In this document: in pieces, positions 27,529-47,285 of the stretch
Layout of the letters: each line of letters begins with the position of its first letter
Position numbering within the stretch: the stretch's first letter is position 1
Assembly (NCBI RefSeq): GCF_058153355.1
Contig: NZ_CM177019.1
Reading direction: 5' to 3' (one strand)
Length of the DNA: 64,000 nt
The notes under the pieces: generated by a model
Seen by the model: the letters and a program-made list of their open reading frames with translations, nothing else
Told to the model about the DNA's origin: nothing
The model's database searches: none
Translations under genes and position numbers: made by a program

Positions 27529-27543
27529 TTGACGACTCCTGTC

Positions 27544-29112: not shown

Positions 29113-29115
29113 CAT

Positions 29116-29916
29116 GACTCCTTGCTCATCGCATGAAGACTCCGAGAGTGAACCCCGTTAGAAAGGGTCACACGCATGCCCCAATACAAAATTATTTGCT
29201 CGCCTCTATCGTTGCCATTTCATCAAAAGAGGAAAAGACAATGATAAAAAAGTTACAAACATGTTAATGAATAAACCAAATTGATCCCGTAATTATATTA
29301 CGCCGCAAAATCCTTACAATAAACAGGTTTTTATTGAGCAAATTTGCATTTTTCGACAGTGATCAATTTATAGCGAAATTGTCACGATCTCACCAATTTG
29401 ATCTACGACAATTTATCGTGTTTTGCAGATTTTTTTCAAGAATTAAAAATTGATTTATATCAAAACCAACCAAATGTGTTAATTATGTATAAACCATAGA
29501 TCATTGGTGATTTTATTGTTAATTTATTGTGAAATGTTTATGCAACACAATTATTACAATGAAAAGGTATAGATAAAAAACCAGTGTTTTATTTAACAGA
29601 ACCGCCTTATCCACTTTTTATAATACCAATTGATTAGAGTAGCCAATTTGTTGCTATTTTACATAACATATTTTTATCAAAGTTAATTGATTGTTGCCTT
29701 TATGAGCATCGCCGTAAGACCGCCATGTTATTGTTTCATTTGTAATAATCACCAATAAGTATCGATGAGAGAGATATCGCTTAACAGAGGCGACTATGTC
29801 TGCATGAACACAGGCAACTTTCGCCTGATAAACGAAAAATGAGCGATTTTTGCAAGTTAGTTTTTCTATAGCCGGGTACGCTGAGCGCCTCGCTTGATTA
29901 CAATGAGGTTGCTGCC
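29116..29916. promoter_or_regulatory. long AT-rich cydAB control region
   Basis: 801-bp AT-rich non-coding region upstream of cydA with multiple TTGAT-type half-sites. Confidence 0.6.
29450..29463. promoter_or_regulatory. FNR-type binding site
   Basis: Perfect TTGAT-TTAT-ATCAA palindrome about 340 bp upstream of cydA start. Confidence 0.6.
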
Positions 29917-30861
29917 ATGGGTCTTGATAATATAGGTTCTGTTGTCAATCGCTTCTCTGGTTGGCCATCAAATGATCCTCTAAAAACAGATAACGAATCA
30001 ATGACATCACCCGTGACTGTGCAGGTAATAAAGTTGATTGCCGCCATCCTTGACCCACATCGGATAGTCGTTGGTATCGATACACTTTACACAACGCAGC
30101 GCAAAACATTTACCTCAGAGGGTCAACAGCTCATTGAATCAGCATTGCAAACACTTCATGTGATGAATTTAAATAACCTGGAAACAAATCTCGATGAGGA
30201 AGGTCACTATCTGGCTTTTGGATATAACGTTGACACTCCTGACAGAATAACCGTTTCTGCTTATAATGAAAAAAAACCTTTCTGTTATGGCCAATGTCTT
30301 TTAATACAGGATGAAGAACCAGATTTATTTAACCTGGTAAAAATTAAAACCTTTGAAGCCAGGCATAATTATGTTTCTAAATTGATGAGCGATCCGGAAT
30401 TTATGTTTAAATTCAGTTATAGCGCCCAACAAAATAGATTAGAACCTCATCTTCTGGTTCCCACTTATTTCCCTCTGAAAACAAACCAACCGGTTACGCT
30501 AGAGGATGTACTGATACTTTATCGTTTCTTTAAAATGAATGGCGATTTTAATATATTAACATCAGATGAATACATGAGTATCATGACACCTCTGATGAAG
30601 TGTGAGCGTAGTGTCCACGACCATAACAGGTATGTGACGGGCAAAGATGCTCTTCTTCTGGACAATCCTCCGTCTGGTAACCAGATATATTTCCATATTT
30701 CCCCTGACGAATCAGCAACACTTGTCCTTTATTTTTCAGACAATAACCTTGAATCCTTCGTCTTTGAAAATGATATTCCGAGCCAGTATCGACATTTCAA
30801 AATGTTTACCAATTTAGCACTAGTTATTGATCAGTTAACCGACGCCAATCAAATACTTTAA
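29917..30861 (+). CDS. hypothetical protein, 314 aa, no family recognised
   Basis: Long ORF in AT-rich DNA with GAGG 9 nt upstream of ATG; no signal peptide, no TM segment and no motif I recognise; true start may be an internal Met. Confidence 0.5.
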   Translation: MGLDNIGSVVNRFSGWPSNDPLKTDNESMTSPVTVQVIKLIAAILDPHRIVVGIDTLYTTQRKTFTSEGQQLIESALQTLHVMNLNNLETNLDEEGHYLAFGYNVDTPDRITVSAYNEKKPFCYGQCLLIQDEEPDLFNLVKIKTFEARHNYVSKLMSDPEFMFKFSYSAQQNRLEPHLLVPTYFPLKTNQPVTLEDVLILYRFFKMNGDFNILTSDEYMSIMTPLMKCERSVHDHNRYVTGKDALLLDNPPSGNQIYFHISPDESATLVLYFSDNNLESFVFENDIPSQYRHFKMFTNLALVIDQLTDANQIL

Positions 30862-30942
30862 TTTTCTATATATCCCCTATGGTAAATATTACTAAACAAT
30901 ACCTGGGGATTAATTTTTATTACTCACGGAAAGATTTAAATA

Positions 30943-31365
30943 ATGATACCATCTCAGATTTCTTTCAATACTCTTCCTGTCAATGCAACATACGCTTCAG
31001 AGACAACAGTTGACACACAAAAATTCTCTGACATCCTCTACTCTGCGGGGTGTTCCCTAAAGGATCTGGCTTATCTGAGCAGATGTCTGGCATCAATACA
31101 TCCGACTATCGCCAAAAACATTTATGAAACAGAAAATCTCAGCGTTCAAAAATTACTGCATATTGATTGCCGTAGTACAAATGAAATCAAGATAAATATC
31201 TTTTTTGGTCAGCAACGAGAAGGATTAATTGAAATTAGTTCTGACACAGTCATTTTTTCGATACTGTCTTCATTGATTGACTCAGCTATTTCTGAACATC
31301 GACATCAAATCACCGTTAACGATTCAAATAATTCTGAACTATTTTATGAGGATTATACTGATTAA
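30943..31365 (+). CDS. hypothetical protein, 140 aa, acidic C-terminus
   Basis: ORF 81 bp downstream of the 314-aa ORF, same strand and same AT-rich composition; ends ...ELFYEDYTD. Confidence 0.45.
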   Translation: MIPSQISFNTLPVNATYASETTVDTQKFSDILYSAGCSLKDLAYLSRCLASIHPTIAKNIYETENLSVQKLLHIDCRSTNEIKINIFFGQQREGLIEISSDTVIFSILSSLIDSAISEHRHQITVNDSNNSELFYEDYTD

Positions 31366-31908
31366 ATCCACTCTGTGCGAACCTGTCCTGCATTTATGCC
31401 AGAAGTATTAGAATCTTTGCTTAACGTTACTCATACAGTAGCACCTTCATGTACTTCTCTTTTTTACGAAAAATCAAAAGAGCTAACAAAGGTCATTCTT
31501 CGCATGGATCATTAATTATTTGTTATTTTCAACATTATTTTTACATTAAGCATATATGAATTGCAGTGAAATTCGACTTAACTTTTATGAAATGCATTTA
31601 CTCATGGCTAAAAAATCTCCCCAAAATGCAAATTAGAAGTTGATCACAATTATCTCAATACATCAAATCAAGTTAATTTTAAAAATTTAACATTCATGAC
31701 ATTAGTTGACGTAACACGCTGAATTAAAATGAGAATTTAAAAACACACTTTAAACAATCATTTCCCGAAAGACATTTTGAAAATAGATCAATTGCAACAT
31801 TACGGTCAGATAAAGACACTCCTCTGATATTAAACCTGTGCCGTTATGAACGGCCATAAATACGACGTGTGTAACTTAATTTACTCTCTGTCTTACAAAG
31901 GATTACCC

Positions 31909-32358
31909 ATGAAGAAAGCAACACTTGTGATTGGCGTTATTGGCGCGGACTGCCATGCAGTAGGCAATAAAGTTCTGGACCGCGTTTTTAGCAACCATGA
32001 CTTCAGAGTCATTAATCTGGGCGTAATGGTCAGCCAGGACGAATATATTGATGCTGCCATTGAAACTGGCGCTGACGCGATTGTCGTCTCCTCTATCTAT
32101 GGGCATGGCGATATCGATTGTCTGGGCATGCGCGAACGCTGCATCGAGCGTGGGCTGGGTAACATCATGCTCTATGTGGGCGGTAACCTGGTGGTCGGAA
32201 AACATGACTTCGCTGACGTGGAAACCAAGTTCAAAGAGATGGGATTTGATCGCGTCTTTTCCCCAAGTCATGACTTAGAAGATGTTTGTCAGCTGATGGC
32301 CCACGATATCACCCAACGTCATGACGTTGATACTCGCATTCTTGAAGAGGCAATCTGA
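31909..32358 (+). CDS. glutamate mutase sigma (S) subunit, B12-binding
   Basis: ORF 31846..32358; start at ATG 31909 (AAGGA 8 nt upstream); [24 protein letters not shown]... with the DxHxxG cobalamin-binding motif (DCHAVG). Confidence 0.85.
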
Positions 32359-33746
32359 TGCAAATCGTCTCTGTCGATATTGGATCGACGTGGACCAAAG
32401 CAGCCCTCTTCACCCGGGAGGGGGACGCGTTAACGTTGGTTAACCACGTTCTGACCCCAACCACCACCCATCATCTGGCGAAAGGGTTTTTCTCCAGCCT
32501 GGACCAGGTGTTAAACGTAGATGATGCCCTCCCCCTGTTAAACAGTGGTGAGGTTGCATTGAAGTATTCCTCCTCTGCCGAAGGTGGGCTGGCGGTTGCC
32601 GCAATGGGATTGGTGCCTTCTATCACCCTGGAAACCGCGAAAGTAACCGCTCACTCTGCGGGTGCTAAAATTGCGCAATATTACGCCTACAAGCTGAACC
32701 GCCGTGATATCCAGGCACTGGAAGAAACGCAGCCCGATATTCTCTTGTTCACCGGCGGCACCGACGGCGGAGAAGAAAGCTACGGACTGAATAACGCCCG
32801 TGTGCTGGCAGAATCCAAACTCGACTGCGCCATTATTTATGCCGGAAACCGGGATATTCAGGATAAGGTGCAGGAGATCCTCGGGCATAAAGACCTGACC
32901 ATCGTCGACAACGTTCTGCCCGATCTTGACCATCCGAACCCTTTAGCTGCACGCCAGGCTATCTGCGACATATTCCTTAAACGCATCGTTAAAGGGAAAG
33001 GGCTGGATGTCATTGTTGATAAAACAGGCGAAGAACCAATGCCGACACCATGGACGGTCTTTGAACTGGTTAAGGCAATCAGTAACGTCGATCACAGCTG
33101 GAAAGAGTTCATGCTGATCGACATGGGCGGCGCAACCACCGATGTCTATTCCGCCTGTGCCAACACGCTCTCGCCCGACACTGTTTTACATGGCGTACCG
33201 GAACCCTTCGTAAAACGGACGGTGGAAGGCGATCTGGGAATGCGCGTCTCGGCAATGGTTGTTGGTGAAAGTGCGAAAGAGTTAGTCAGTGTGAATTTTG
33301 CTCAGCAACCCGCACAGTTGGACGCTTTTTATCATTACCTCCGTCATCTAGTCGCTCATCCCGACTACTTACCCGCGAATGCAGATGAAAAATATTTCGA
33401 TACCGTCCTGGCCGGACTGTGTGTGGGTTATGCCACCGAAAGACATGCGGGCACCAAAAAAGAGGTCTGCACCTGCGTCGGCAATGTCGATTTACAGATG
33501 GGACGTGATCTGACAACCGTGCGTAAAGTCGTGGGTTCCGGCGGATGGCTCTCACGTGCCAGTCAGTTCGATATGCATCACTGGTTGAAATACCGCGAGT
33601 TAAACGACGACGGTAAACGCATTCTCTTACCGACCGAATTTGAATATTACCGCGATTACCGGGGGCTATTACCACTGCTGGCAAACGTCGCCAGAGTCGA
33701 TCCGCTGGCCGCCGCGCGCACCAGTATTCAATGCTTAACCCTATAA
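32358..33746 (+). CDS. glutamate mutase L component (ASKHA-fold putative reactivase/chaperone)
   Basis: 462-aa ORF with TGATG overlap to the S-subunit gene; N-terminal [18 protein letters not shown] actin-like ATPase motif; sits between S and E genes. Confidence 0.75.
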   Translation: MQIVSVDIGSTWTKAALFTREGDALTLVNHVLTPTTTHHLAKGFFSSLDQVLNVDDALPLLNSGEVALKYSSSAEGGLAVAAMGLVPSITLETAKVTAHSAGAKIAQYYAYKLNRRDIQALEETQPDILLFTGGTDGGEESYGLNNARVLAESKLDCAIIYAGNRDIQDKVQEILGHKDLTIVDNVLPDLDHPNPLAARQAICDIFLKRIVKGKGLDVIVDKTGEEPMPTPWTVFELVKAISNVDHSWKEFMLIDMGGATTDVYSACANTLSPDTVLHGVPEPFVKRTVEGDLGMRVSAMVVGESAKELVSVNFAQQPAQLDAFYHYLRHLVAHPDYLPANADEKYFDTVLAGLCVGYATERHAGTKKEVCTCVGNVDLQMGRDLTTVRKVVGSGGWLSRASQFDMHHWLKYRELNDDGKRILLPTEFEYYRDYRGLLPLLANVARVDPLAAARTSIQCLTL

Positions 33747-33764
33747 CAATTAAGGCTGCAATCA

Positions 33765-35210
33765 ATGGAACTTCGAAATAAGAAATTAACCCATGACGAA
33801 TTCATGACCGAGCGGCAACAGGTATTGAAAACCTGGGAAACCGGCAAGGATGTTGAAAACTTTGAAGATGGCGTTAAATACCAACAAACCATTCCTGAGC
33901 ATAAACGCTTCTCTCATGCCCTGCTGAAAGCAGACAAGGAAGGTAAAACCCTTAGCCAACCGCGCGCAGGCGTGGCGCTGATGGACGAACACATCGAACT
34001 ACTGAAAACACTACAAGAAGAGTGCGATCTGCTGCCGAGCACTATCGATGCATATACCCGTCTGAATCGGTACGAAGAAGCGGCTGTAGGGATTAAAAAA
34101 TCCATCGAAGCCAGAACCTCTAAACTGAACGGTTTACCGGTAGTTAACCACGGCGTCGCAGCTTGCCGTCGCCTCACCGAAACTCTGCAAAAACCGCTAC
34201 AGATCCGCCACGGCACGCCAGATGCGCGTCTGCTGGCTGAAATCTCGATGGCCAGCGGCTTTACCAGTTATGAAGGCGGCGGCATTTCCTACAATATTCC
34301 GTATGCCAAGCGCGTAACGCTGGAAAAATCGATCCGCGACTGGCAGTACTGCGACCGTTTAATGGGGATGTATGAAGAACACGGGATCCGCATCAACCGC
34401 GAACCGTTTGGCCCACTAACGGGTACGCTGATCCCGCCGTTTATCTCGCACTCTATCGCGATAATCGAAGGCTTGCTGGCACTGGAACAGGGTGTGAAAT
34501 CTATTACCGTTGGTTATGGACAGGTCGGCAGCCTGACGCAGGATGTCGCGGCGATCCAGTCTCTGCGTGAACTTGCACACGAATACTTTCAGAGCTATGG
34601 CTATACCGACTATGAATTAAGTACCGTATTTCACCAGTGGATGGGCGGCTTTCCGGAGGACGAATCGAAAGCGTTCGCCATTATCTCCTGGGGTGCTGCC
34701 GTCGCGGGGATGTCTGGTGCTACCAAAGTCATCACCAAAAGTCCGCACGAAGCCTGGGGCATCCCGACTGCTGCTGCCAACATTCAGGGGCTAAAAGCCT
34801 CCCGCCAGATGCTCAACATGGTCAACGAGCAGAAATTCCCGCCGTGCCCGGCGGTTGAACTGGAAATTGAACTGATTAAGAGCGAGGTTCGCGCTGTACT
34901 GAACAAAGTGTTCGAACTGGGTAATGGTGATATTGCGCGCGGTACGGTGCTGGCATTTGAAGCGGGCGTACTGGATGTACCGTTTGCCCCAGCCGCCTGC
35001 AACGCAGGCAAAATTCTTCCGGTCCGTGACAACACCGGCGCGATACGCGTACTGGAAGCCGGAGCCGTTCCATTGCCAAAAGATATTCTCGACCTCCACC
35101 ACGATTACGTTGCTGAACGCGCACGCTTTGAAGGACGCCAACCGACATTCCAGATGGTTGTAGATGACATCAATGCTGTATCCCACAGTAAATTAATAGG
35201 AAGACCATAA
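33765..35210 (+). CDS. glutamate mutase epsilon (E) catalytic subunit
   Basis: 481-aa ORF; size and position (S-L-E-methylaspartase order) match the clostridial glutamate mutase operon as recalled. Confidence 0.8.
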   Translation: MELRNKKLTHDEFMTERQQVLKTWETGKDVENFEDGVKYQQTIPEHKRFSHALLKADKEGKTLSQPRAGVALMDEHIELLKTLQEECDLLPSTIDAYTRLNRYEEAAVGIKKSIEARTSKLNGLPVVNHGVAACRRLTETLQKPLQIRHGTPDARLLAEISMASGFTSYEGGGISYNIPYAKRVTLEKSIRDWQYCDRLMGMYEEHGIRINREPFGPLTGTLIPPFISHSIAIIEGLLALEQGVKSITVGYGQVGSLTQDVAAIQSLRELAHEYFQSYGYTDYELSTVFHQWMGGFPEDESKAFAIISWGAAVAGMSGATKVITKSPHEAWGIPTAAANIQGLKASRQMLNMVNEQKFPPCPAVELEIELIKSEVRAVLNKVFELGNGDIARGTVLAFEAGVLDVPFAPAACNAGKILPVRDNTGAIRVLEAGAVPLPKDILDLHHDYVAERARFEGRQPTFQMVVDDINAVSHSKLIGRP

Positions 35211-36451
35211 TGAAAATAAAACAGGCCCTTTTCACCGCTGGCTACTCTTCATTCTATTTCGATGACCAGCAGGCGATAAAAAACGGAGCGGGTCACGACG
35301 GCTTTTTTTATACCGGAGAGCCGGTAACACAGGGGTTTAACGCCGTACGTCAGGCCGGGGAGTGCGTTTCGGTTCAGTTGATTCTGGAAAACGGTGCGGT
35401 CGCCGTAGGCGACTGTGCTGCCGTACAGTATTCCGGGGCAGGCGGTCGCGATCCACTGTTCCTCGCAGAGCACTTTATTCCGTTCCTCAACGACCATATC
35501 AAGCCATTACTGGTAGGCCGCGATGTGGATGCTTTCCTGCCGAATGCCCGTTTCTTCGACAAATTGCGTATTGACGGAAACTTGCTGCATACCGCCGTAC
35601 GTTACGGATTATCACAGGCGCTGCTTGATGCTACCGCGCTGGCAACCGGCCGTCTAAAAACTGAAGTGGTCTGTGATGAATGGCAGTTGCCACGCGTGGC
35701 GGAATCCATTCCATTATTTGGTCAGAGCGGCGACGATCGATATATCGCTGTCGATAAGATGATCCTTAAGGGCATCGACGTGCTACCTCATGCGCTGATT
35801 AATAACGTCGAAGAGAAACTGGGCTTTAAAGGAGAAAAACTGCGCGAATATGTCCGTTGGCTATCCGATCGGATTCTAAGCAAACGCACCAGCGCACGCT
35901 ACCACCCTACCCTGCACATCGATGTATACGGCACTATTGGTCTGATCTTCGATATGGATCCGCTTCGCTGTGCGCAATACATCGCCAGTCTGGAAAAAGA
36001 GGCGCAAGGCCTGCCGCTCTACATTGAGGGGCCGGTCGATGCCGGTAACAAGCCCGATCAAATTCGCCTGCTGACCGCGATTACCAAAGAGCTGACGCGC
36101 CTCGGTTCCGGCGTGAAAATTGTGGCCGATGAATGGTGTAACACCTACCAGGATATTGTTGATTTCACTGATGCCGCCAGTTGCCACATGGTGCAAATCA
36201 AAACCCCGGATCTGGGCAGTATTCACAACATCGTCGATGCAGTTCTTTATTGCAACAGCCACAGCATGGAAGCGTACCAGGGCGGCACCTGCAATGAAAC
36301 CGATGTCAGCGCCCGCACGTGTGTCCACGTCGCCCTTGCCGCTCGCCCTATGCGTATGCTGGTAAAACCGGGGATGGGCTTTGACGAAGGCCTCGATATC
36401 GTCTTCAACGAAATGAATCGTACTATCGCGCTGTTGCAGGCTAAGGATTAA
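35210..36451 (+). CDS. mal: 3-methylaspartate ammonia-lyase (methylaspartase)
   Basis: 413-aa ORF MKIKQALFTAGYSSFYFDDQQAIKNGAGHDGFFYTGEPVT...; strong resemblance to recalled clostridial/Citrobacter methylaspartase (same length; conserved HMVQIKTPDLG, NETN and KPGMG blocks); TAATG overlap with E subunit. Confidence 0.9.
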   Translation: MKIKQALFTAGYSSFYFDDQQAIKNGAGHDGFFYTGEPVTQGFNAVRQAGECVSVQLILENGAVAVGDCAAVQYSGAGGRDPLFLAEHFIPFLNDHIKPLLVGRDVDAFLPNARFFDKLRIDGNLLHTAVRYGLSQALLDATALATGRLKTEVVCDEWQLPRVAESIPLFGQSGDDRYIAVDKMILKGIDVLPHALINNVEEKLGFKGEKLREYVRWLSDRILSKRTSARYHPTLHIDVYGTIGLIFDMDPLRCAQYIASLEKEAQGLPLYIEGPVDAGNKPDQIRLLTAITKELTRLGSGVKIVADEWCNTYQDIVDFTDAASCHMVQIKTPDLGSIHNIVDAVLYCNSHSMEAYQGGTCNETDVSARTCVHVALAARPMRMLVKPGMGFDEGLDIVFNEMNRTIALLQAKD

Positions 36452-36454
36452 CAA

Positions 36455-37825: not shown

Positions 37826-38139
37826 AACAGTCAATTGTCTCACTGGCGCAAGTCATTCGTTCGAAAAATGCCGGACCTTACGAACTGGTTTTAGATATTT
37901 TATTTAAAACGAAAGAAAACTATGAGCGAGTAAAATCATCAGGGCAATTAACCCCAGAACTGATTGCGCGCTTATATCATGTTGAACCTGACTTTATTCA
38001 TCGTATTGTCTGGTTTGATCCTTCTAACGCAGTAAAAATTGTCATGCCACGAGATATTATCTCCGGGAATGTAGGTGACAATGATGTCTATGGCGCACAG
38101 CAACATGCACCTTTATTAAATATGAGTTTCGATTTGTAA
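37822..38139 (+). CDS. small conserved protein, DUF4387-like partner, 105 aa
   Basis: ATGA overlap with the preceding ORF; AT-rich; DUF1446/DUF4387 pairing is from memory. Confidence 0.5.
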   Translation: MKQSIVSLAQVIRSKNAGPYELVLDILFKTKENYERVKSSGQLTPELIARLYHVEPDFIHRIVWFDPSNAVKIVMPRDIISGNVGDNDVYGAQQHAPLLNMSFDL

Positions 38140-38225
38140 AAATCCGAACACTTTTAGCCAACTGACATCCCGTCACTTATTGCAGCTCAACACTTCAGCT
38201 ATTTGTAAGGTTGTTATAGCAGGTA

Positions 38226-38251
38226 GATGCCTGAATCTCTATTCAGGCATC
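38226..38251 (+). other. perfect 11-bp-stem hairpin between the DUF4387-like gene and the transporter
   Basis: gatgcctgaat-ctct-attcaggcatc; followed by pyrimidine-rich sequence but no clean T-run. Confidence 0.4.
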
Positions 38252-38299
38252 CACTTCTCCTGATTCTGATTTATCGCCGTGCACCTGATGGAGGAAAAA

Positions 38300-39580
38300 A
38301 TGAAGAAAATAAGTTTAACCACGATGATTCTTTTGGCGCTGGTACTTGGAATGATTATCGGCGTAGTGCTCAATAACACTGCTTCACCGGAAACAGCAAA
38401 ACTCTATGCGCAAGAAATATCGATATTCACGACGATTTTCTTACGACTGATAAAAATGATTATCGCTCCGTTAGTGGTCTCTACCCTGGTGGTAGGTATT
38501 GCTAAAATGGGCGATGCCAAAGCCCTTGGTCGTATTTTTTCTAAAACACTCTTTTTATTTATTTGCGCCTCATTGCTGTCAATTGCCTTAGGCTTGATAA
38601 CGGTAAATTTCTTCATGCCAGGCACAGGAATTAATTTTGTTGCACACGGTGCCGAAACCACCGGAGTGGTCGCGTCAGAACCCTTTACACTAAAAGTATT
38701 TATTTCGCATGCTTTCCCCACCAGCATTGTCGATGCCATGGCGCACAATGAAATTTTGCAAATCGTGGTGTTCTCAATTTTCCTCGGCTGTAGCCTGACG
38801 GCGATTGGTGAGAAAGGCAGCGCCATCGTTCACGCCTTAGATTCGCTGGCACATGCCATGTTAAAGCTCACTGGCTACGTCATGCTCTTCGCTCCCCTGA
38901 CCGTATTCGCCGCTATTTCAGCATTGATTGCTGAACGAGGACTGGCAGTTATGGTGAGCGCCGGGATCTTTATGGGTGAATTTTATTTCACCATGTTATT
39001 ACTTTGGGTGCTGCTTATCGGTCTGGCCATCGTTTATGTCGGCCCCTGCATCAGACGCCTGACCCGCGCCCTTTCAGAACCCGCCCTGCTGGCATTTACC
39101 ACATCCAGTTCTGAAGCTGCTTTTCCGGGAACGCTTGAAAAACTGGAGCAATTTGGCGTTTCCCCCAAAATTGCCAGCTTTGTCTTACCCATTGGCTACT
39201 CATTTAATCTCGTTGGATCAATGGCCTACTGCTCCTTCGCCACAGTTTTCATCGCCCAGGCCTGCAATATCCATTTATCCATCGGTGAGCAAATCACCAT
39301 GCTGTTGATCCTGATGTTGACCTCGAAAGGAATGGCTGGCGTACCACGCGCCTCAATGGTGGTTATCGCCGCCACGCTCAACCAGTTCAATATTCCGGAA
39401 GCGGGGCTGATCTTGCTGATGGGCGTTGATCCGTTCCTTGATATGGGGCGTTCCGCGACAAACGTCATGAGCAACGCAATGGGCGCTGCGATGGTGAGTC
39501 GGTGGGAAGGCGAACATTTCGGCGAGGGTTGTCGGGGTAAAGCATTAAAACCCAATGAATCGAACGTTGCTCTGCCCTGA
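38300..39580 (+). CDS. dicarboxylate/amino acid:cation symporter (DAACS)-family transporter
   Basis: ORF 38279..39580; start at ATG 38300 (GGAGG 5 nt upstream); polytopic membrane protein resembling GltP/DctA-type symporters. Confidence 0.7.
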   Translation: MKKISLTTMILLALVLGMIIGVVLNNTASPETAKLYAQEISIFTTIFLRLIKMIIAPLVVSTLVVGIAKMGDAKALGRIFSKTLFLFICASLLSIALGLITVNFFMPGTGINFVAHGAETTGVVASEPFTLKVFISHAFPTSIVDAMAHNEILQIVVFSIFLGCSLTAIGEKGSAIVHALDSLAHAMLKLTGYVMLFAPLTVFAAISALIAERGLAVMVSAGIFMGEFYFTMLLLWVLLIGLAIVYVGPCIRRLTRALSEPALLAFTTSSSEAAFPGTLEKLEQFGVSPKIASFVLPIGYSFNLVGSMAYCSFATVFIAQACNIHLSIGEQITMLLILMLTSKGMAGVPRASMVVIAATLNQFNIPEAGLILLMGVDPFLDMGRSATNVMSNAMGAAMVSRWEGEHFGEGCRGKALKPNESNVALP

Positions 39581-39687
39581 GGGAGATCTTAAGCAATCAG
39601 AAGCCAATGACTACGCATTTTTATAAGCCGGATCATGAAGTTAGACGGCAATTAAGTAACACTAACGTTTAAGGTGAAAAGTGAAAT

Positions 39688-41340
39688 ATGTCCAAACCAT
39701 TTATCTGGCAAGAACCGTTTCTACAAAATAAAGACGGTACAGAATATACATTAATTAGCGATCAACATATTACAGTAACGGAATTAGACGGCGAAGAAGT
39801 AATAAAAATCGCTCCTGAAGCATTAACGCTGCTTGCCCGGCAGGCATTTTATGAAGCCTCTTTTTTCTTACGTTCCGCTCATTTGCAACAGGTCGCCAGC
39901 ATTCTTAACGATCCGCAGGCCAGCAGTAATGATAAATACGTTGCGTTGCAGTTATTACGTAATGCTGAAGTCTCAGCAAAAGGGGTATTACCCAACTGTC
40001 AGGATACCGGCACCGCAACTATTGTTGCCAGTAAAGGGCAACAGATATGGACCGGAGGCAACGACGCCGAAGCCTTAAGCAAAGGCATTTACACCACTTT
40101 TCAGGAAAATAATTTGCGCTTTTCACAAAATGCGCCGCTGGATATGTATACCGAAGTCAATACGTACACCAATCTACCGGCGCAGATTGATATCAGCGCC
40201 GTCGCTGGTGATGAGTACCATTTTCTCTGTATTAATAAAGGGGGCGGCTCCGCCAATAAAGCCGCACTTTATCAGGAAACCAAATCCTTATTGCAACCAG
40301 AAAAACTGACCGCATTTTTAATCGAAAAAATGAAATCGCTGGGCACCGCTGCCTGCCCGCCTTACCACATCGCCTTTGTCGTCGGAGGGCTTTCAGCCGA
40401 TCAAACCTTAAAAGTTGCCAAGCTGGCCTCTACGAAATATTACGACAATTTGCCCACCAGCGGAAACGAGCAGGGACAAGCATTCCGTGATATTGAGCTG
40501 GAAAAAGCGTTGCTCGAAGCCAGTCAGCAATTTGGTATTGGTGCGCAATTTGGGGGTAAATATTTCGCTCATGATATTCGCGTCATTCGTCTGCCGCGTC
40601 ACGGTGGCTCCTGCCCGATAGCTATGGCGCTCTCCTGTTCTGCCGATCGCAATATCAAAGCAAAAATTAACAAGCATGGTATCTGGCTGGAAAAACTCGA
40701 ACACAATCCGGGGCAATATATTCCAGCCTCACTGCGGGAAGAAAATCACGCGCAACATGTACAGCTGGATCTAAACCGTCCGTTGCGTGACGTGATGCAG
40801 GATCTCGCCAGATTACCGGTAGGCACCCGCGTGTCGTTAAGTGGTCCCATCGTAGTGGCGCGCGATATCGCCCACGCCAAAATAAAAGCGCGGCTGGATA
40901 GCGGCGAATCGATGCCGGATTATCTGAAGCATCATATTGTCTATTACGCTGGCCCGGCGAAAACACCGGAGAACATGGCCTGCGGTTCACTGGGTCCAAC
41001 CACGGGCGGTCGAATGGACGGTTATGTCGAAACCTTCCAGGCGGCTGGCGGCAGTCTGGTAATGTTATCGAAAGGTAACCGCAGCCAGCAGGTCACCGAT
41101 GCCTGTCACAAACATGGCGGCTTCAATCTGGGAAGTATTGGCGGTGCAGCTGCGTTACTGGCGCAAGAATATGTCAAAAGTCTGCGTTGCCTGGAATACC
41201 CGGAGCTGGGTATGGAAGCGGTGTGGATGATGGAAGTGGAAAATCTGCCCGCATTCATCCTGGTCGATGATAAAGGCAATAATTTCTTTAGTCAGTTTGA
41301 GCAGCAACACCGCTGCGCCAGTTGCCCTGCGGGACATTAA
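39688..41340 (+). CDS. fumD: class I (Fe-S) fumarate hydratase paralog, probable mesaconase/fumarase
   Basis: 550-aa ORF colinear with E. coli FumA/FumB as recalled ([70 protein letters not shown]); symbol fumD is from memory of the O157:H7 mesaconase. Confidence 0.8.
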
Positions 41341-41349
41341 GGAAAATGA

Positions 41350-41952
41350 ATGGAAGCGCGAATTTCAACTGAACGGCATGTGCAGCGCCAGCAGAAATTG
41401 AAGGAACAGGTCGATACGCGCGTCGCGGCGGCGATAGAGAAAAAAGGGATCTTGATTGTTTTCACCGGCAACGGCAAAGGGAAATCCACTGCCGCGTTTG
41501 GTACTGTGACGCGCGCGGTGGGTCATGGCAAAACGGTGGGGGTTGCGCAGTACATCAAGGGGCAATGGGACAACGGCGAATACAACCTTCTCCAGCCGCT
41601 GGGGGTTGAGTTTCATATTATGGGAACCGGTTTTACCTGGGAGACTCAGAACCGGCAAGCGGATATCGACGCGGCGAAAGAGGTCTGGTCGGAAAGCAAA
41701 CGGATGCTGGCTGACAAGCGTTACGACTTAGTGGTGCTTGATGAGCTGACCTATATGCTGGCTTACCATTATCTGGACACCGAAGAAGTGATCACTTCTC
41801 TGCAAAACCGCCCGGCACAACAAAGTGTCATTGTCACCGGACGCAGTTGCCACAGTCAGATATTAAAAATGGCGGATACGGTCAGCGAAATCCGCCCCGT
41901 CAAACATGCTTTTGATAACGGCATTCAGGCGCAGCCGGGTATCGACTGGTAA
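41350..41952 (+). CDS. cob(I)alamin adenosyltransferase (CobA/BtuR family)
   Basis: 200-aa ORF with P-loop GNGKGKST and close resemblance to E. coli BtuR as recalled (VFTGNGKGK.TAAFGT.TRAVGHGK, LDELTYM, ELRPVKHAF). Confidence 0.85.
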   Translation: MEARISTERHVQRQQKLKEQVDTRVAAAIEKKGILIVFTGNGKGKSTAAFGTVTRAVGHGKTVGVAQYIKGQWDNGEYNLLQPLGVEFHIMGTGFTWETQNRQADIDAAKEVWSESKRMLADKRYDLVVLDELTYMLAYHYLDTEEVITSLQNRPAQQSVIVTGRSCHSQILKMADTVSEIRPVKHAFDNGIQAQPGIDW

Positions 41953-41985
41953 TAACTGCGCCTGGCATCCCGCCAGGCGCAGGTT

Positions 41986-42891
41986 TTACATCTCCTGCGG
42001 TACGACCGATTTCGCCAGCAACCATTCACGAAATTGCTGCAAGTGCGGCGAGTCAGACTTCTCTTCCTGCCACGTCATAATAAAACGATTACCGGTACGA
42101 ATAGGCACATCACAGGGAATCACCATATCGCCACTATCCAAATCATGTTGAATAGCGAACCGTGGTAACAGCGCCACGCCGAGATTAGAGCGCACGGCGG
42201 CAATCAGCATTGAAAGCAAATCGAAACGTGGTCCGTTATTGACCAGCGGACTGCTAACGCCAGATAAAGCAAACCACTCTTCCCAGCCAGTAATACGGGT
42301 GCTTTGATGCAGAAGTGGTAACTCAGTAAGCAGTTCTGCCACTGAAAGTTTTTGATCGGACATTGCAAGCAAACTGCCGCTGCATACCGGCAAAATCTCC
42401 TCTTCAAAGAGATATTCTACTTCCGCCCAGGGCGCGCAAAAATTTTCGCGCATAATGACAGCATCGTACTCCCGATTAAGAAAATCGCCGTTATTAGCTA
42501 AAGAATGAATATTAACAATAATATCGGGATGTAACTTTGTGAATTCATGTAAATTTGGGATTAACCAGTGGGTACTAAACGTAGGATTAACGGCAAGTTC
42601 AATAACCTGAACCGTAGGCTGCCAGGTCATAATCGTATTGGTATCGCGTTCCAGCTTATTTAATGTTTCTTTTACTATCCCCAGGTAATACTTCCCTGCA
42701 TCATTAAGAAAAATGCGTTTTTTAGAGTGTGAAAATAGCGGAGTATGTAAAAATTCCTCCAGCGCACTTACTTGTCTGAATACAGCACTTTGGGTTAACG
42801 CTAACTCCTCTGCCGCTCTGGTATAGCTTTCATGACGTGCGACGACCTCAAAAGTCACCAGCAGCTCCGTTTTAGGTATTTTTCCTCGCAT
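41986..42891 (-). CDS. LysR-family transcriptional regulator
   Basis: ORF 41986..42921; start set at internal Met (MRGKIPKTELLVTFEVVARHESYTRAAEELALTQSAVFRQVSALEE, LysR HTH); 42921 is an alternative start; convergent with the adenosyltransferase gene, divergent from the RtcB-like gene. Confidence 0.8.
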   Translation of the reverse strand: MRGKIPKTELLVTFEVVARHESYTRAAEELALTQSAVFRQVSALEEFLHTPLFSHSKKRIFLNDAGKYYLGIVKETLNKLERDTNTIMTWQPTVQVIELAVNPTFSTHWLIPNLHEFTKLHPDIIVNIHSLANNGDFLNREYDAVIMRENFCAPWAEVEYLFEEEILPVCSGSLLAMSDQKLSVAELLTELPLLHQSTRITGWEEWFALSGVSSPLVNNGPRFDLLSMLIAAVRSNLGVALLPRFAIQHDLDSGDMVIPCDVPIRTGNRFIMTWQEEKSDSPHLQQFREWLLAKSVVPQEM

Positions 42892-43480
42892 AATGCCGTC
42901 CGTGAAAAAATAACAATTCAAAAATTATTTTATAAAAAACAGTAGCACTAATGAATATCATAATTCAAATAAACAAACCAGTCAGCTATATGTCTAACCA
43001 GGAAAATAAAGTGACAATAATCCTAAAACAGGAATTTCACCTCAGTTATCCGCATGCAATACTTTAAAGCTATTATTGCAAGAATATTATTCATATACAT
43101 GAATATACTCTAAATAAGTCAAGTTGCAGGAAGGGAACAAATAATGAATTTCCAGAAGCTTACATAAGTAAGTGACCTGGGTGAGCGAACATCGATGCAG
43201 CACATGCAACTTGAATTATGACAAGTATACAATGATAAATTTATATACCCTATGTTATATATTATCTATGTCCGGTTAGATTGAATGAGTCATAGCCTTA
43301 AAAGACTTCACAAAAGATAATTCCTCTTTAACAATAAGCCAGATTTACCACTTGTAAAACTTGCTATCGCCACATACACTACGCGCGTTTTCTTTCCCTT
43401 TTGCTGGCTGCTGACCGGAAAGACAAAATTACCCTCGCAATACAGGGGGTTGATTAACGTCTATATTTCAGGACAGCGTT

Positions 43481-44878
43481 ATGCATCATCTTTCAAGGCT
43501 TGATAAAGCCTTTCTGCGCAAAGGGATCCAACTTTCCCGCGCCAACAATATTGTTTCATTATGTCGTCCATCAGGAGCCAGTGCCCGCGTACTGCTGCCG
43601 GACGAACTGCCGCTGGAAGAAAAAGCAGTAACACAACTGCTTGATTTTGCAGAAGTGAAGCTACCAGACCACCCAGGTTATGTGCGCCAGACGTGCGCGA
43701 CGCCAGATTTTCATCCCGGCAATGGCGTCCCCGTTGGCGCGGTGGTGGCCTCAACGCCGGATTTAGTCATTCCCGCCGCCATCGGCACCGATATTTCTTG
43801 TGGCATGCGGCTGCTGACGACCGGATTAACACTTGAGCAAGCCGAAGCGCATAAAGACGTCATCGCTCAGCGGTTAACGCAAGTGCTACTGCAAAATGAG
43901 CGCGATGTTCCGTTATCCGCACAGGCGTTCACCGCGCTTTTTGATGGCGGACCGGCAGATTGCGTGTCGACCTTGCCATCAGCAGGTCTCTGGACACGCA
44001 CGAATATCCCCCGAATGGTACAAGAGATTGACCGCTGCATTGGGCTTAACGAGCATAACAGTCATTCGCGTTATGCCCCACCCGCCCTGCTGGCAACGGA
44101 CCGCGCATTACTCCGCGATCCTTGTCTTGGTACGCCGGGTTCAGGTAATCATTTTATTGAACTTCAGGTCGTTGATAGCGTGGTTGATCGCCATGTAGCC
44201 TGGCAACAAGGGCTGAAAACAGGCGATATTGTGGTGATGATCCACAGTGGATCGCGAGATGTTGGCTTTTACGTCGGAAGACGCTGGATGGATCGCGCCC
44301 GTGCTGAATGGCCCACCGGACATAAACATCCACAAAGCGGGTTATATGGTCTGGCAGGCGGACTGGCGGAGGAATATCTACAAGCGATAGGAATGGCGGC
44401 GCGTTACGCGTGGTTAAATCGCGTGACAATTGCCGAAATGGTGCGCGTATGTCTTGCCAATCTCTTTCATCAGGACAATTCGCATCTGGTGGTGGATGTG
44501 CCACATAACATCATCCTTCGCGAGCATGAAATGAATATTCATCGCAAAGGCGCAACACCGGCACGAGTGGGCAATCTGGCGTTAATCCCCGGTTCAATGG
44601 GCGATTATTCGTGGCTTGCGGTAGGTTGCGGCAACCCGGAGTGGCTGTGGTCTTGCAGTCACGGAGCAGGACGCAGCCAGCGTCGGCAGGCCATGCGCTC
44701 ACGCGCGACTGAAGAGTCAACGTTGCCGTGGCAATGCGTCACATTGCGCGAAGAACGGCGTATTGAAGAAGCGCCAGCTGCTTATAAAGATATTGGTCCG
44801 GTTATCGAAGCCCAACAAGAGGCCGGATTAATTCATCCAGCGGTTAGATTCCGACCGTGGTTAACGTTTAAAGCATAA
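43481..44878 (+). CDS. RtcB-family RNA ligase paralog, 465 aa
   Basis: Conserved RtcB blocks aligned by eye to E. coli RtcB: IPAAIGTDISCGM, GSGNHFIE, MIHSGSRDVG, IPGSMGDYS, CSHGAGR, AAYKDI. Confidence 0.8.
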   Translation: MHHLSRLDKAFLRKGIQLSRANNIVSLCRPSGASARVLLPDELPLEEKAVTQLLDFAEVKLPDHPGYVRQTCATPDFHPGNGVPVGAVVASTPDLVIPAAIGTDISCGMRLLTTGLTLEQAEAHKDVIAQRLTQVLLQNERDVPLSAQAFTALFDGGPADCVSTLPSAGLWTRTNIPRMVQEIDRCIGLNEHNSHSRYAPPALLATDRALLRDPCLGTPGSGNHFIELQVVDSVVDRHVAWQQGLKTGDIVVMIHSGSRDVGFYVGRRWMDRARAEWPTGHKHPQSGLYGLAGGLAEEYLQAIGMAARYAWLNRVTIAEMVRVCLANLFHQDNSHLVVDVPHNIILREHEMNIHRKGATPARVGNLALIPGSMGDYSWLAVGCGNPEWLWSCSHGAGRSQRRQAMRSRATEESTLPWQCVTLREERRIEEAPAAYKDIGPVIEAQQEAGLIHPAVRFRPWLTFKA

Positions 44879-44975
44879 AAAAGGCCATCATACGATGGCC
44901 AACCATGTCGAAACCGACAGCCCTTCGCCATTCCTGTAGAGGGAAGCGGCGAGGGCTATTTCTTATTACAGATAT
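44877..44975 (-). ncRNA. sdhX: sucD 3'-UTR-derived small RNA (SdhX-like) ending at an intrinsic terminator
   Basis: Minus-strand region after sucD stop ends ggccatcgtatgatggcc + U6; assignment rests on recalled position of SdhX. Confidence 0.45.
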
Positions 44976-47011: not shown

Positions 47012-47084
47012 GTGTTCTGTCCATCCTTCAGTAATCGTTATCTTTTAAACCGTAGACCGAATATTTCGTATCGCTTCCGGGTAT

Positions 47085-47255: not shown

Positions 47256-47285
47256 CGGTCTACAGTGCAGGTGAAACTTAAACTA

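Follow-up and report, generated by a model that had tools for sequence, protein, structure and literature searches.

The closest described relative of the locus analysed here is the glutamate-fermentation (methylaspartate pathway) gene cluster of Escherichia coli O157:H7 and other Enterobacteriaceae (Kronen and Berg, 2015; PMC4682846), which has the same gene order, glmS-glmL-glmE-mal-DUF1446-DUF4387-symporter-fumD-cobA with a LysR-type regulator gene. Figure 5 of that paper includes the LysR gene in the enterobacterial cluster and labels the symporter GltP. No methylaspartate ammonia-lyase (MAL) activity was found in an O157:H7 strain, which also failed to grow anaerobically on glutamate and was not stimulated in its growth by it (PMC4682846); these negative results count against the reading below, and the role of the pathway in the cell and its inducer are accordingly putative.

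The clostridial operon (C. tetanomorphum, C. tetani and C. cochlearium) shares the chemistry proposed here, from glutamate through methylaspartate, mesaconate and (S)-citramalate to pyruvate and acetate, and its GlmS, GlmL (MutL), GlmE and MAL are homologous to those of the locus. Its mesaconase is the two-subunit MesAB rather than a single-chain FumA-type FumD, its citramalate lyase is the citrate-lyase-like CitDEF with CitCXG activation genes rather than an AtuA/DUF4387-type CmlAB, and its regulator is of the GntR rather than the LysR type. Unlike the clostridial operon, the island described here has its own cob(I)alamin adenosyltransferase (CobA) and a symporter of the dicarboxylate/amino acid:cation (DAACS) family. 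In the haloarchaeal methylaspartate cycle, mesaconate is used in acetate assimilation after activation to mesaconyl-CoA, whereas here FumD would hydrate it and CmlAB would carry out the cleavage; the island encodes no CoA-transferase or mesaconyl-CoA hydratase.

The window is the whole 64,000-nucleotide stretch of DNA that was analysed. Its positions 31909-42891 very probably form a chromosomal module that degrades L-glutamate to pyruvate and acetate by the methylaspartate route, separate from the orphan ORFs and rtcB paralog beside it. The module lies at the same chromosomal site as the O157:H7-type cluster, and its proteins are 97-100% identical to those of an O157-type strain. Divergence is greater for the orphan ORFs (87% and 91% amino acid identity). 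From the LysR gene to sucD, the window also differs from O157-type strains in having a spacer of 463 bp and an rtcB paralog that is intact.

Gene content and boundaries

A preliminary description of the window reported 13 ORFs between cydA and sucD that are absent from K-12. The 13 intact ORFs match the RefSeq annotation of N96, the closest complete genome (98.4% identity over the whole span), which has an identical set of 13 coding sequences in this interval, and the K-12 counterpart is mngR-mngA-mngB. Two of the 13 had gone unnamed, namely the LysR-type regulator gene (41986-42891, minus strand) and the RtcB-family RNA ligase paralog (43481-44878). The segment had been placed at 29116-44975; it is present, but its ends are flank. 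BLAST alignment to K-12 sets the junctions at 29488/29489 and 44870/44871, and the accessory DNA is 29489-44870 (15,382 bp), which replaces 5,930 bp of K-12 DNA. The first 373 bp of the longer span lie upstream of cydA, and the final ~100 bp belong to sdhX and the terminator of sucD:

29116..29488, no strand: cydA upstream (control) region, flank common to K-12 and not accessory; the K-12 alignment is unbroken from cydB/cydA
44875..44975, minus strand: sdhX sRNA/sucD 3' UTR and terminator, flank common to K-12; aligns to K-12 sdhX (L003 3551-3651)

Homology to the B2 strain NRG857C at the cydA side extends to 29752. On the sucD side, a minus-strand terminator hairpin lies at 44900-44883, and no Rfam family matched the flank 44875..44975.

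Base composition is mosaic, as first described. The orphan ORFs hyp314 (38% GC) and hyp140 (36%) and the DUF4387 gene (38%) are indeed AT-rich, but the transporter gene, which had been grouped with them, is 48.6% GC overall and AT-rich solely at its 5' end. Two further AT-rich stretches are the LysR gene (45%) and, ahead of rtcB, a spacer of 589 bp (34%). Spacers have 26-37% GC and enzyme genes 49-55%. The reported lack of an integrase, transposase or tRNA attachment site was borne out: family HMM searches matched no integrase or transposase family among the 13 ORFs, no tRNA was found in the segment, and flanking direct or inverted repeats did not go beyond chance-level short matches.

Proposed enzymes from glutamate to citramalate

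The module comprises ten ORFs: glmS, glmL, glmE, mal, the DUF1446/DUF4387 pair, the DAACS symporter gene, fumD, cobA and the convergent LysR gene. All ten are full length, and their lengths agree with those of RefSeq orthologues. The enzymes predicted to lead from glutamate to citramalate are:

31909..32358, plus strand: glmS, glutamate (methylaspartate) mutase small B12-binding subunit, 149 aa (NF002612, TIGR01501)
32358..33746, plus strand: glmL (mutL), glutamate mutase accessory/reactivating protein, 462 aa (TIGR01319, NF040745)
33765..35210, plus strand: glmE, glutamate mutase catalytic subunit E, 481 aa (TIGR01503)
35210..36451, plus strand: mal, 3-methylaspartate ammonia-lyase, 413 aa (TIGR01502)
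39688..41340, plus strand: fumD, class I (Fe-S) fumarase paralog predicted to act as mesaconase, 550 aa (NF011921)

Scores of the module enzymes lie above curated family thresholds, and their catalytic motifs are conserved; GlmS, GlmL, GlmE, MAL, FumD and CobA pass curated equivalog HMM cut-offs. The earlier reading, in which the segment encodes glutamate mutase (B12-dependent), methylaspartase and mesaconase together with a dedicated adenosyltransferase, agrees with these models, with PDB relatives, with a genome census and with PMC4682846, and profile searches placed the mutase, methylaspartase and fumarase-family (FumD, NF011921) proteins above cut-off.

Glutamate mutase is an adenosylcobalamin-dependent carbon-skeleton mutase, here predicted to consist of GlmS and GlmE and to convert glutamate to (2S,3S)-3-methylaspartate, with GlmL keeping it active. 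GlmS scores 250 bits with NF002612 (cut-off 110) and 243 bits with TIGR01501 (cut-off 135.8), its start at 31909 agrees with the RefSeq annotation, and the DxHxxG B12 motif recognised earlier is DCHAVG at residue 14. GlmL scores 881 bits with TIGR01319 (cut-off 204) and 506 bits with NF040745 (cut-off 475). GlmE scores 864 bits with TIGR01503 (cut-off 390) and matches the Clostridium glutamate mutase structures 1CCW, 1I9C and 6H9E over its full length (E about 1e-188).

MAL would convert methylaspartate to mesaconate and NH4+. It scores 544 bits with TIGR01502 (cut-off 286), matches the methylaspartate ammonia-lyase structure 1KKO over its full length (E 3.6e-270), and keeps all seven active-site residues (Q172, H194, D238, E273, D307, Q329 and K331). 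It is 99.8% identical to the O157-type enzyme, and the O157:H7 enzyme enables growth in vivo with methylaspartate as the nitrogen source (bioRxiv 10.1101/2025.11.12.688011).

FumD would hydrate mesaconate to (S)-citramalate. It scores 1276 bits with NF011921 (cut-off 1060), whereas the FumA and FumB models stay under their own cut-offs. Cysteines 104, 223 and 317 lie in CQDTG, CPPY and SCSA contexts, and the protein matches structures of Leishmania class I fumarate hydratase. It is 98.2% identical to O157-type FumD, which as a purified enzyme prefers mesaconate to fumarate 2-3 fold (PMC4682846). For both FumD and MAL, the predicted activities have thus been shown elsewhere in near-identical orthologues.

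A probable citramalate lyase

The DUF1446/DUF4387 ORFs very probably encode a two-subunit citramalate lyase, CmlAB, which would cleave (S)-citramalate to pyruvate and acetate:

36455..37825, plus strand: cmlA, citramalate lyase large subunit (AtuA/DUF1446 family), 456 aa (PDB 9erq/9evf chain A)
37822..38139, plus strand: cmlB, citramalate lyase small subunit (DUF4387), 105 aa (PDB 9erq/9evf chain B); 4-base overlap with cmlA

CmlA matches Pfam AtuA (PF07287). Over their full lengths, CmlA and CmlB are 91.9% and 84.6% identical to chains A and B of 9erq/9evf, which the depositors named 'Citramalate lyase, subunit A (cmlA)' and 'Citramalate lyase, subunit B (cmlB)'. These structures are of the Raoultella planticola enzyme, which likewise has subunits of 456 and 105 aa encoded after mal, whereas RefSeq names the E. 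coli pair 'acyclic terpene utilization AtuA family protein' and 'DUF4387 domain-containing protein'. In engineered E. coli, R. planticola cmlAB allows mesaconate-dependent growth, and label from mesaconate arrives in acetyl-CoA (bioRxiv 10.64898/2026.01.16.699985). The CmlAB step is based on the PDB depositor names and on this one preprint that used the enzyme in vivo; to that extent, the predicted activity has been shown elsewhere for near-identical orthologues.

The preliminary description had the two families right and treated the ORFs as unknowns within a route ending at mesaconate or citramalate. As CmlAB, the pair would carry the module on to pyruvate and acetate, and would supply the step that Kronen and Berg (2015) could not find. 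Gene order is consistent with this reading: the AtuA gene lies directly 3' of mal in two distant operons (L015 and L016), and the DUF4387 gene always follows the AtuA gene in these and in a third (L017). The order glmS-glmL-glmE-mal-AtuA-DUF4387 is kept in a Rifleibacterium MAG and in an unrelated 5.5-Mb genome, and in both a fumarase gene is part of the cluster or close to it.

Transport, cofactor supply and regulation

The remaining features of the module are:

31366..31908, no strand: AT-rich region upstream of glmS, 543 bp, 32% GC (composition)
38300..39580, plus strand: DAACS-family dicarboxylate/amino acid:cation symporter, 426 aa (DctA/GltP HMM matches)
41350..41952, plus strand: cobA/cobO (btuR-like) cob(I)alamin adenosyltransferase, 200 aa (NF004637, TIGR00708)
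41956..41982, no strand: GC-rich hairpin between the convergent cobA and LysR genes, 11 pairs, 9 of them G-C; top terminator-like site
41986..42891, minus strand: LysR-type transcriptional regulator, GcvA-like, 301 aa (best match GcvA subfamily)

The symporter certainly belongs by its sequence to the DAACS family, and its start at 38300 is preceded by GGAGG 6 nt upstream of the ATG. It would import glutamate, its presumed substrate; because it scores under the cut-offs of both DctA (314 bits) and GltP (304 bits), methylaspartate or mesaconate could be the substrate instead. CobA scores 295 bits with NF004637 (cut-off 185) and 245 bits with TIGR00708 (cut-off 168), its translation has the P-loop GNGKGKST, and it would adenosylate salvaged corrinoid to supply the mutase cofactor.

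The LysR-type protein is 99.3% identical to the O157-type copy and scores 221 bits with the GcvA subfamily, under the 288 cut-off. It is presumed to regulate the module, presumably by activating transcription from the AT-rich stretch before glmS, where the operon promoter and regulatory sites are presumed to lie. Within 31366..31908, no plus-strand sigma-70 consensus promoter and no riboswitch or other Rfam family was found. The tight gene coupling reported earlier was found as claimed, with overlaps TGATG (glmS/glmL), TAATG (glmE/mal) and ATGA (cmlA/cmlB). The hairpin at 41956..41982, recovered also as inverted repeat I5 in a repeat search, is likely a bidirectional terminator that closes the operon. 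A single operon is in keeping both with the translational coupling of the genes and with the one strong terminator that follows cobA. Mutase activity, transporter substrate, regulator target and expression conditions are assigned from family membership and are predictions.

A cassette hotspot and a module under selection

The module is flanked by further elements:

29917..30861, plus strand: hyp314, AT-rich orphan ORF, 314 aa; separate cassette outside the glutamate module
30943..31365, plus strand: hyp140, AT-rich orphan ORF, 140 aa; hypothetical in RefSeq genomes
42910..43372, no strand: AT-rich spacer, 463 bp; breakpoints from strain alignments
43481..44878, plus strand: stand-alone RtcB-family RNA ligase paralog, 465 aa (Pfam RtcB)

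Profile searches gave no family match for hyp140, and hyp314 had none in Pfam, NCBIfam, PHROG or PADLOC; its relatives among 5.8e9 and 1.84e9 proteins are only close Escherichia relatives or fragments. A homologue of hyp314 (62% identical, equal length) is the sole occupant between cydA and sucD on contig L009. Compared with the O157-type copies, dN/dS is 0.37 for hyp314 and 0.34 for hyp140. The RtcB paralog matches Pfam RtcB over its full length (318 bits) and is 30% identical to K-12 RtcB, and its PDFH, DISCG, GSGNH, HSGSR, PHN and SHGAGR motifs align with the matching blocks of P. horikoshii RtcB. It occurs as a single chromosomal copy in 296 of 5426 complete E. coli genomes and adjoins sucD or mngB in every genome inspected. 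The orphan ORFs (29917-31365) and the rtcB paralog are independent neighbouring cassettes outside the pathway.

Alignments to ST648 (L006) and 2020CK-00188 (L018) break at 42909/42910 and resume at 43373; between the same two breakpoints, other strains carry an 8.6-kb hut-like histidine-utilisation cassette. O157-type strains retain remnants of both hut (an ammonia-lyase gene) and rtcB between the LysR gene and sucD, and strain A25 is a deletion derivative that has lost glmE' through the LysR gene. The term replacement island, used at first, is too simple: the glm module, rtcB and mngBAR coexist in LHM10-1, rtcB lies immediately beside mngB in that strain and 133 further genomes, and a hut cluster is inserted in other strains. 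The cydA-sucD interval is a multi-cassette indel hotspot whose contents are the orphan ORFs, the glm module, the hut cluster or the 463-bp spacer, the rtcB paralog and mngBAR.

The glm module itself is present in 1116 of the 5426 genomes, about 21%, in line with the earlier statement that its core enzymes were already noted in O157:H7-type genomes. Compared with the O157-type copy, the concatenated genes have a dN/dS of 0.064 (per gene 0.00-0.16; glmE 0.021), and their dS of 0.078 is of the same order as that of the flanking sucCD genes (0.12-0.13). The module is under strong purifying selection.

Alternative functions

An anabolic role is improbable as the main function. In such a role, methylaspartate would be transaminated and decarboxylated to 2-ketobutyrate, giving an anaerobic, threonine-independent route to isoleucine. 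Early labelling studies of E. coli W and Crookes, together with a 2025 preprint (bioRxiv 10.1101/2025.08.26.672309), show that methylaspartate rescues a 2-ketobutyrate auxotroph via native promiscuous enzymes, and the preprint remarks that the O157:H7 mutase may serve this role. However, that route requires only GlmSLE and leaves unexplained the coupled, equally conserved mal, fumD, cmlAB and symporter genes as well as the recurrence of the gene order in distant anaerobes. It could be a side benefit of the module.

There is only a slight chance that the pathway stops at citramalate or mesaconate, to be excreted as a possibly host-directed metabolite, the fallback of Kronen and Berg, who raised secretion as a possibility and detected no citramalate lyase activity in O157:H7 extracts from growth on citrate, acetate or propionate (PMC4682846). 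MAL activity was undetectable in those extracts too, so they did not express the island, and the island encodes close CmlAB orthologues (92% and 85% identity) coupled to mal. Slighter still is the chance that the module serves mainly for external C5-dicarboxylates (methylaspartate, mesaconate, citramalate) imported in place of glutamate. The symporter does score slightly better against DctA than GltP, and FumD and CmlAB would suffice to convert mesaconate to pyruvate and acetate, yet the B12-dependent mutase, its chaperone and the adenosyltransferase would be superfluous although they are the operon's most conserved genes, and in some strains the module adjoins a hut cassette, the canonical end product of whose pathway is glutamate. 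That the island is cryptic, decaying cargo is scarcely credible: expression was absent in every laboratory condition tried (PMC4682846), the upstream region lacks a consensus promoter and deletion derivatives occur (A25; O157-type strains that lost hut and rtcB), but ten genes of orthologous length, low dN/dS across lineages with a synonymous divergence of 0.078 and retention in 1116 genomes argue against decay.

The segment is the vitamin-B12-dependent glutamate pathway published in 2015: real, intact, ordinary and already known. Its low dN/dS and a dS of the same order as that of sucCD indicate that the genes are maintained by selection and have long been resident in the species.

Locus Organization

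The interval between cydA and sucD in the window contains 13 ORFs, all intact, and strain N96, the complete genome closest to the window (98.4% identity over the span), has the same 13 CDS in its RefSeq annotation. The ten ORFs from glmS to the LysR gene (31909-42891) form the glm module. The features of the interval and its flanks are as follows.

27544-29115, minus strand, cydA, left flank
29917-30861, plus strand, hyp314, orphan ORF
30943-31365, plus strand, hyp140, orphan ORF
31909-32358, plus strand, glmS, glutamate mutase small subunit
32358-33746, plus strand, glmL, glutamate mutase accessory protein
33765-35210, plus strand, glmE, glutamate mutase large subunit E
35210-36451, plus strand, mal, 3-methylaspartate ammonia-lyase (MAL)
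36455-37825, plus strand, AtuA/DUF1446 gene (cmlA), predicted CmlA orthologue
37822-38139, plus strand, DUF4387 gene (cmlB), predicted CmlB orthologue
38300-39580, plus strand, DAACS symporter, by family profile matches
39688-41340, plus strand, class I fumarase (fumD), by FumD-type profile
41350-41952, plus strand, cobA, by adenosyltransferase profiles
41986-42891, minus strand, LysR-type regulator, convergent with cobA
43481-44878, plus strand, RtcB-family gene, by Pfam RtcB domain
44976-45845, minus strand, sucD, right flank

In K-12, the same position holds mngR-mngA-mngB. BLAST alignment places the K-12 junctions at 29488/29489 and 44870/44871; where K-12 has 5,930 bp, the window has 15,382 bp of accessory DNA. 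The preliminary description drew the segment slightly wider, taking in shared DNA at both ends: the region upstream of cydA on the left, and sdhX plus the sucD terminator on the right. The small RNA gene sdhX is placed by the K-12 alignment only; a permissive Rfam scan of 27000-47000 missed it. The window flanks are only 96-97% identical to those of K-12, O157-type, and B2 strains, a level that raised the possibility of an Escherichia species other than E. coli. This was rejected and the window assigned to E. coli, since the neighboring sdh/suc DNA matches several E. coli genomes at 99.1% identity and strain 2020CK-00188 matches the locus at 98.8-99.3%. A separate polymorphism lies between sucB (odhB) and sucC, where the window, N96, and K-12 share a stretch of about 195 bp (window 47060-47256), with short internal repeats at 77-80% identity, that is missing from the O157-type strain and strain A25.

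The TGATG, TAATG, and ATGA gene overlaps reported earlier are present in the window sequence. The mosaic base composition also reported holds overall, except that the transporter gene is not AT-rich throughout; it has 48.6% GC and is AT-rich at its 5′ end only. A strong hairpin at 41956-41982 lies between cobA and the convergent LysR gene. The translational coupling, the short gaps, and this single hairpin fit a reading of glmS to cobA as one operon, shut off by the hairpin against the LysR gene.

Glutamate Mutase, MAL, and CobA

GlmS, GlmL, GlmE, MAL, the fumarase, and CobA all exceed NCBIfam curated equivalog cut-offs. GlmS scores 250 bits against NF002612 (cut-off 110) and 243 against TIGR01501 (cut-off 135.8), and the cobalamin motif noticed in its translation is DCHAVG at residue 14. 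The DxHxxG sequence is the base-off/His-on cobalamin-binding motif. The adjacent glmL and glmE genes encode proteins that score 506 bits against NF040745 (cut-off 475) and 864 bits against TIGR01503 (cut-off 390), respectively, and GlmE matches the clostridial glutamate mutase structures 1CCW and 6H9E over its full length. GlmSE with GlmL is thus predicted, by family membership only, to be an adenosylcobalamin-dependent mutase that interconverts L-glutamate and (2S,3S)-3-methylaspartate; the literature searched yielded no assay of any E. coli glutamate mutase.

CobA, a CobA/BtuR-type ATP:cob(I)alamin adenosyltransferase by profile, scores 245 bits against TIGR00708 (cut-off 167.75) and 295 against NF004637 (cut-off 185), and the modified P-loop GNGKGKST is visible in its translation.

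MAL belongs to the enolase superfamily. The window protein retains Q172, H194, D238, E273, D307, Q329, and K331 at exactly those positions; with roles and numbering from published structures, we take K331 to be the catalytic base, H194, Q329, and Q172 to be further active-site residues, and D238, E273, and D307 to be the Mg2+ ligands. It scores 544 bits against TIGR01502 (cut-off 286) and matches methylaspartate ammonia-lyase PDB 1KKO, a close relative of solved structure, over its full length (E = 3.6e-270). The activity of the O157 enzyme has been shown in vivo (bioRxiv 10.1101/2025.11.12.688011). Compared with an O157-type strain, the window module proteins show 97-100% identity.

FumD

The class I fumarase ORF passes the FumD-type model NF011921 (1276 bits, cut-off 1060) and falls under the thresholds of the FumA (928, cut-off 1105) and FumB-type (923, cut-off 1094) models. 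It contains the three class I fumarase cysteine motifs, with C104 in CQDTG, C223 in CPPY, and C317 in SCSA, which are presumed, from what holds for FumA and the Leishmania fumarate hydratase, to ligate the [4Fe-4S] cluster. Structures of the Leishmania enzyme match FumD. The window protein is 98.2% identical to O157-type FumD, whose conversion of mesaconate to (S)-citramalate has been measured (PMC4682846).

CmlAB

The larger gene of the DUF pair was described as ‘unknown function (DUF1446)’ by Kronen and Berg in 2015 (PMC4682846). The preliminary description recognized both ORFs as DUF1446-like and DUF4387-like and left their identity open; Pfam profiles confirm the AtuA family, and the pair corresponds to CmlAB. 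The two genes, cmlA (~456 aa, AtuA) and cmlB (~105 aa, DUF4387), are adjacent and overlap by 4 bases. Their products align from end to end with chain A (91.9% identity) and chain B (84.6% identity) of PDB 9erq/9evf, which the depositors named ‘Citramalate lyase, subunit A (cmlA)’ and ‘subunit B (cmlB)’. In engineered E. coli, Raoultella planticola Cml supports mesaconate-dependent growth and carries label into acetyl-CoA (bioRxiv 10.64898/2026.01.16.699985).

The order GntR-glmS-glmL-glmE-mal-AtuA-DUF4387 is kept in a Rifleibacterium MAG (L015) and an unrelated 5.5-Mb genome (L016), both of which also have a fumarase gene within the cluster or close by; this gene order is independent support for the assignment. 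Clostridia pair the glm-mal genes with citramalate lyase genes of the citDEF type, whereas these two clusters have AtuA-DUF4387 instead. By orthology, and going by the depositors' names, a single preprint, and gene context, window CmlAB is predicted to cleave (S)-citramalate to pyruvate and acetate, a reaction reported through those names and that use for the R. planticola enzyme only.

In RefSeq, the two proteins (36455-38139) still go by ‘acyclic terpene utilization AtuA family protein’ and ‘DUF4387 domain-containing protein’. The AtuA-family protein also appears in some database entries as ‘3-methylaspartate ammonia-lyase’, a misannotation already flagged by Kronen and Berg (PMC4682846).

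In an Accumulibacter contig (L017 9001-10679), an AtuA and DUF4387 pair with 68% identity to CmlA stands alone, with rpoBC and an amylomaltase gene next to it and no glm, mal, or fumarase genes; the pair is therefore not confined to glutamate-fermentation operons. The slot after the DUF4387 gene, filled by the symporter in E. coli, is instead occupied in L015 (10712-11665) and L016 (10677-11618) by a conserved ORF of about 315 aa with a Walker A motif (GAEGSGKST) and no Pfam family. This ORF may encode an accessory NTPase of the methylaspartate pathway.

Transport, Regulation, and Proposed Pathway

The symporter scores below the GltP equivalog NF008440 (304 bits, cut-off 638) and also below the DctA threshold (314 bits, cut-off 513). 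By its profile matches, it is a DAACS-family member whose substrate is not fixed by either profile. The permissive Rfam scan of 27000-47000 found no B12 riboswitch or other RNA element, and a promoter scan returned no more sites than in shuffled sequence, with zero plus-strand sites upstream of glmS. The 543-bp region upstream of glmS has 32% GC and lacks a coding-strand consensus promoter or riboswitch, which would fit an activator-dependent or silenced promoter.

In the proposed and most likely pathway, the DAACS symporter would import glutamate, which GlmSE with adenosylcobalamin, kept active by GlmL, would convert to methylaspartate. MAL would then release mesaconate and NH4+, FumD would hydrate mesaconate to (S)-citramalate, and CmlAB would cleave this to pyruvate and acetate. 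CobA would supply the cofactor from salvaged corrinoid.

In an O157:H7 strain, MAL activity, anaerobic growth on glutamate, and growth stimulation by glutamate were all undetected (Kronen and Berg, PMC4682846), and other roles have been considered. Isoleucine synthesis via methylaspartate (bioRxiv 10.1101/2025.08.26.672309) is quite unlikely to be the function of the operon, secretion of citramalate (raised in PMC4682846) is very unlikely, and use of external C5-dicarboxylates is more improbable still. Read as a glutamate-fermentation operon, the locus would close the gap left in 2015 over the fate of citramalate through two DUF genes inside the operon itself.

The cydA-sucD Cassette Hotspot

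The preliminary description regarded the segment as a replacement island and noted the absence of an integrase, transposase, or tRNA. The absence is borne out by profile searches of all 13 ORFs and a tRNA scan of 20000-55000, and no meaningful flanking repeats surround the segment. Without an integrase or transposase, tRNA, or flanking direct repeats, the segment does not qualify as a classical integrative genomic island. Plasmid carriage was likewise rejected: none of five matches is supportive, three being chromosome-scale records filed as plasmids and the others a 416-kb Salmonella replicon (79% identity) and an unrelated Pantoea fumA.

Simple replacement does not describe the interval, which is a cassette hotspot where the glm module and mngBAR can coexist, as in LHM10-1, which has the glm module, rtcB, and mngBAR all together. 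The rtcB-mngB junction occurs in 134 genomes and the rtcB-sucD junction of the window type in 156. In strain A25, a deletion starts inside glmE and ends shortly before rtcB, with mngBAR following, and B2 strains such as NRG857C have a TPR protein gene alone in the interval. In a Logan contig (L009) whose cydA end matches the window at 80% identity, a hyp314 homologue and an ORF of 258 aa are all that the interval contains.

An 8.6-kb hut-like histidine-utilization cassette is found in ST648 and 2020CK-00188 (L006 347-9000 and L018 7281-15923, respectively) exactly at the 463-bp AT-rich spacer of the window (42910-43372). It encodes a HAL-family ammonia-lyase, hutG, hutI, hutD, a permease, and hutU; this cassette aside, 2020CK-00188 is 98.8-99.3% identical to the window across the locus. 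Between the LysR gene and sucD, O157-type strains retain remnants of the hut ammonia-lyase (L002 16800-17305) and of rtcB, so both were formerly present there and deleted later. From these strain-to-strain states, it follows that the orphan ORFs, glm module, and rtcB occur independently.

Glutamate, the end product of the canonical hut pathway, is what the adjacent glm module would take on to pyruvate and acetate. The hotspot might build, from modules, a B12-dependent super-operon for amino-acid fermentation controlled by a single LysR regulator, with RtcB or the orphan ORFs possibly tied in; pathway expression would then never yet have been seen because the inducing signal of the super-operon is not known. 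In strains with the hut cassette, the insertion lies exactly between the LysR gene and rtcB. The cassettes occur independently of each other, and the super-operon, with any functional tie of RtcB or the orphan ORFs to the glm module, is unlikely.

RtcB and the Orphan ORFs

The RtcB-family protein, an RNA ligase paralog, has a full-length PF01139 domain (318 bits, residues 63-464), and its PDFH, DISCG, GSGNH, HSGSR, PHN, and SHGAGR blocks align with those of P. horikoshii RtcB. We take these six blocks to hold the metal-binding Asp, Cys, and His residues and the guanylylated His of characterized RtcB. The paralog is only 30% identical to K-12 RtcB. The window gene also lacks the setting of the rtcBA/rtcR RNA repair operon: neither rtcA, for the cyclase, nor rtcR, for the sigma-54 activator, lies beside it, and its neighbors are the LysR gene and sucD, at the sucD/sdhX junction.

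Its closest non-Escherichia relatives (60-67% identity) stand alone in the beta- and gamma-proteobacteria Pseudomonas, Burkholderia, and Variovorax, with no conserved neighbors in Pseudomonas or Burkholderia. Membership in a defense or repair operon was rejected, with no PADLOC match and no conserved neighbors. The paralog occurs in 296 of 5426 E. coli genomes as one chromosomal copy each, beside sucD or mngB in every genome inspected.

The AT-rich orphan ORFs hyp314 (314 aa) and hyp140 (140 aa) have no family match in Pfam, NCBIfam, PHROGs, or PADLOC, and neither has a detectable homologue outside close Escherichia relatives. An exhaustive HMMER search of 1.84e9 representative proteins returned only close Escherichia-type sequences or fragments for hyp314, and its AlphaFold2 model, from a 4-sequence alignment, is unusable (pLDDT 40.6). 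The hyp314 homologue of the Logan contig (8001-8945) is 62% identical, of the same length, and in the same place beside cydA, on a contig without the glm module. At 87% and 91% amino acid identity to their O157-type copies, against 97-100% for the module, and with dN/dS of about 0.35 for both, hyp314 and hyp140 evolve faster than the neighboring module.

Prevalence, Selection, and Biological Significance

The concatenated module has a dN/dS of 0.064 and a dS of 0.078 against the O157-type copy, and flanking sucCD has a dS of 0.12-0.13. With this low dN/dS and a dS of the order of that of sucCD, the module genes are under purifying selection and look like long-term E. coli residents rather than a recent import. 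That the module is cryptic cargo is scarcely credible.

Among 5426 complete E. coli genomes, 1116 (~21%) carry 80% or more of the segment. Kronen and Berg (PMC4682846), who gave FumD its name, reported frequencies for the cluster of 26.5% in E. coli and 90.6% in O157:H7 strains; the gene order in their drawing is identical and takes in CobA, the transporter, and the LysR regulator. The preliminary description was right that this is a B12-dependent glutamate mutase/methylaspartase module already noted in O157:H7-type genomes, as the enzymes pass their profiles and the published cluster matches. The feature is already known; this analysis adds only the exact junctions, a map of the cassettes in the hotspot, and the predicted citramalate lyase identity of the two DUF genes.

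The remaining biology is regulatory and ecological, namely when the operon turns on and whether it affects colonization, rather than a matter of gene identity. The gut is rich in glutamate. With this operon, about one in five E. coli strains, most O157:H7 included, would be able to take glutamate all the way to pyruvate, acetate, and ammonia, by a route that relies on corrinoids scavenged by the bacterium.
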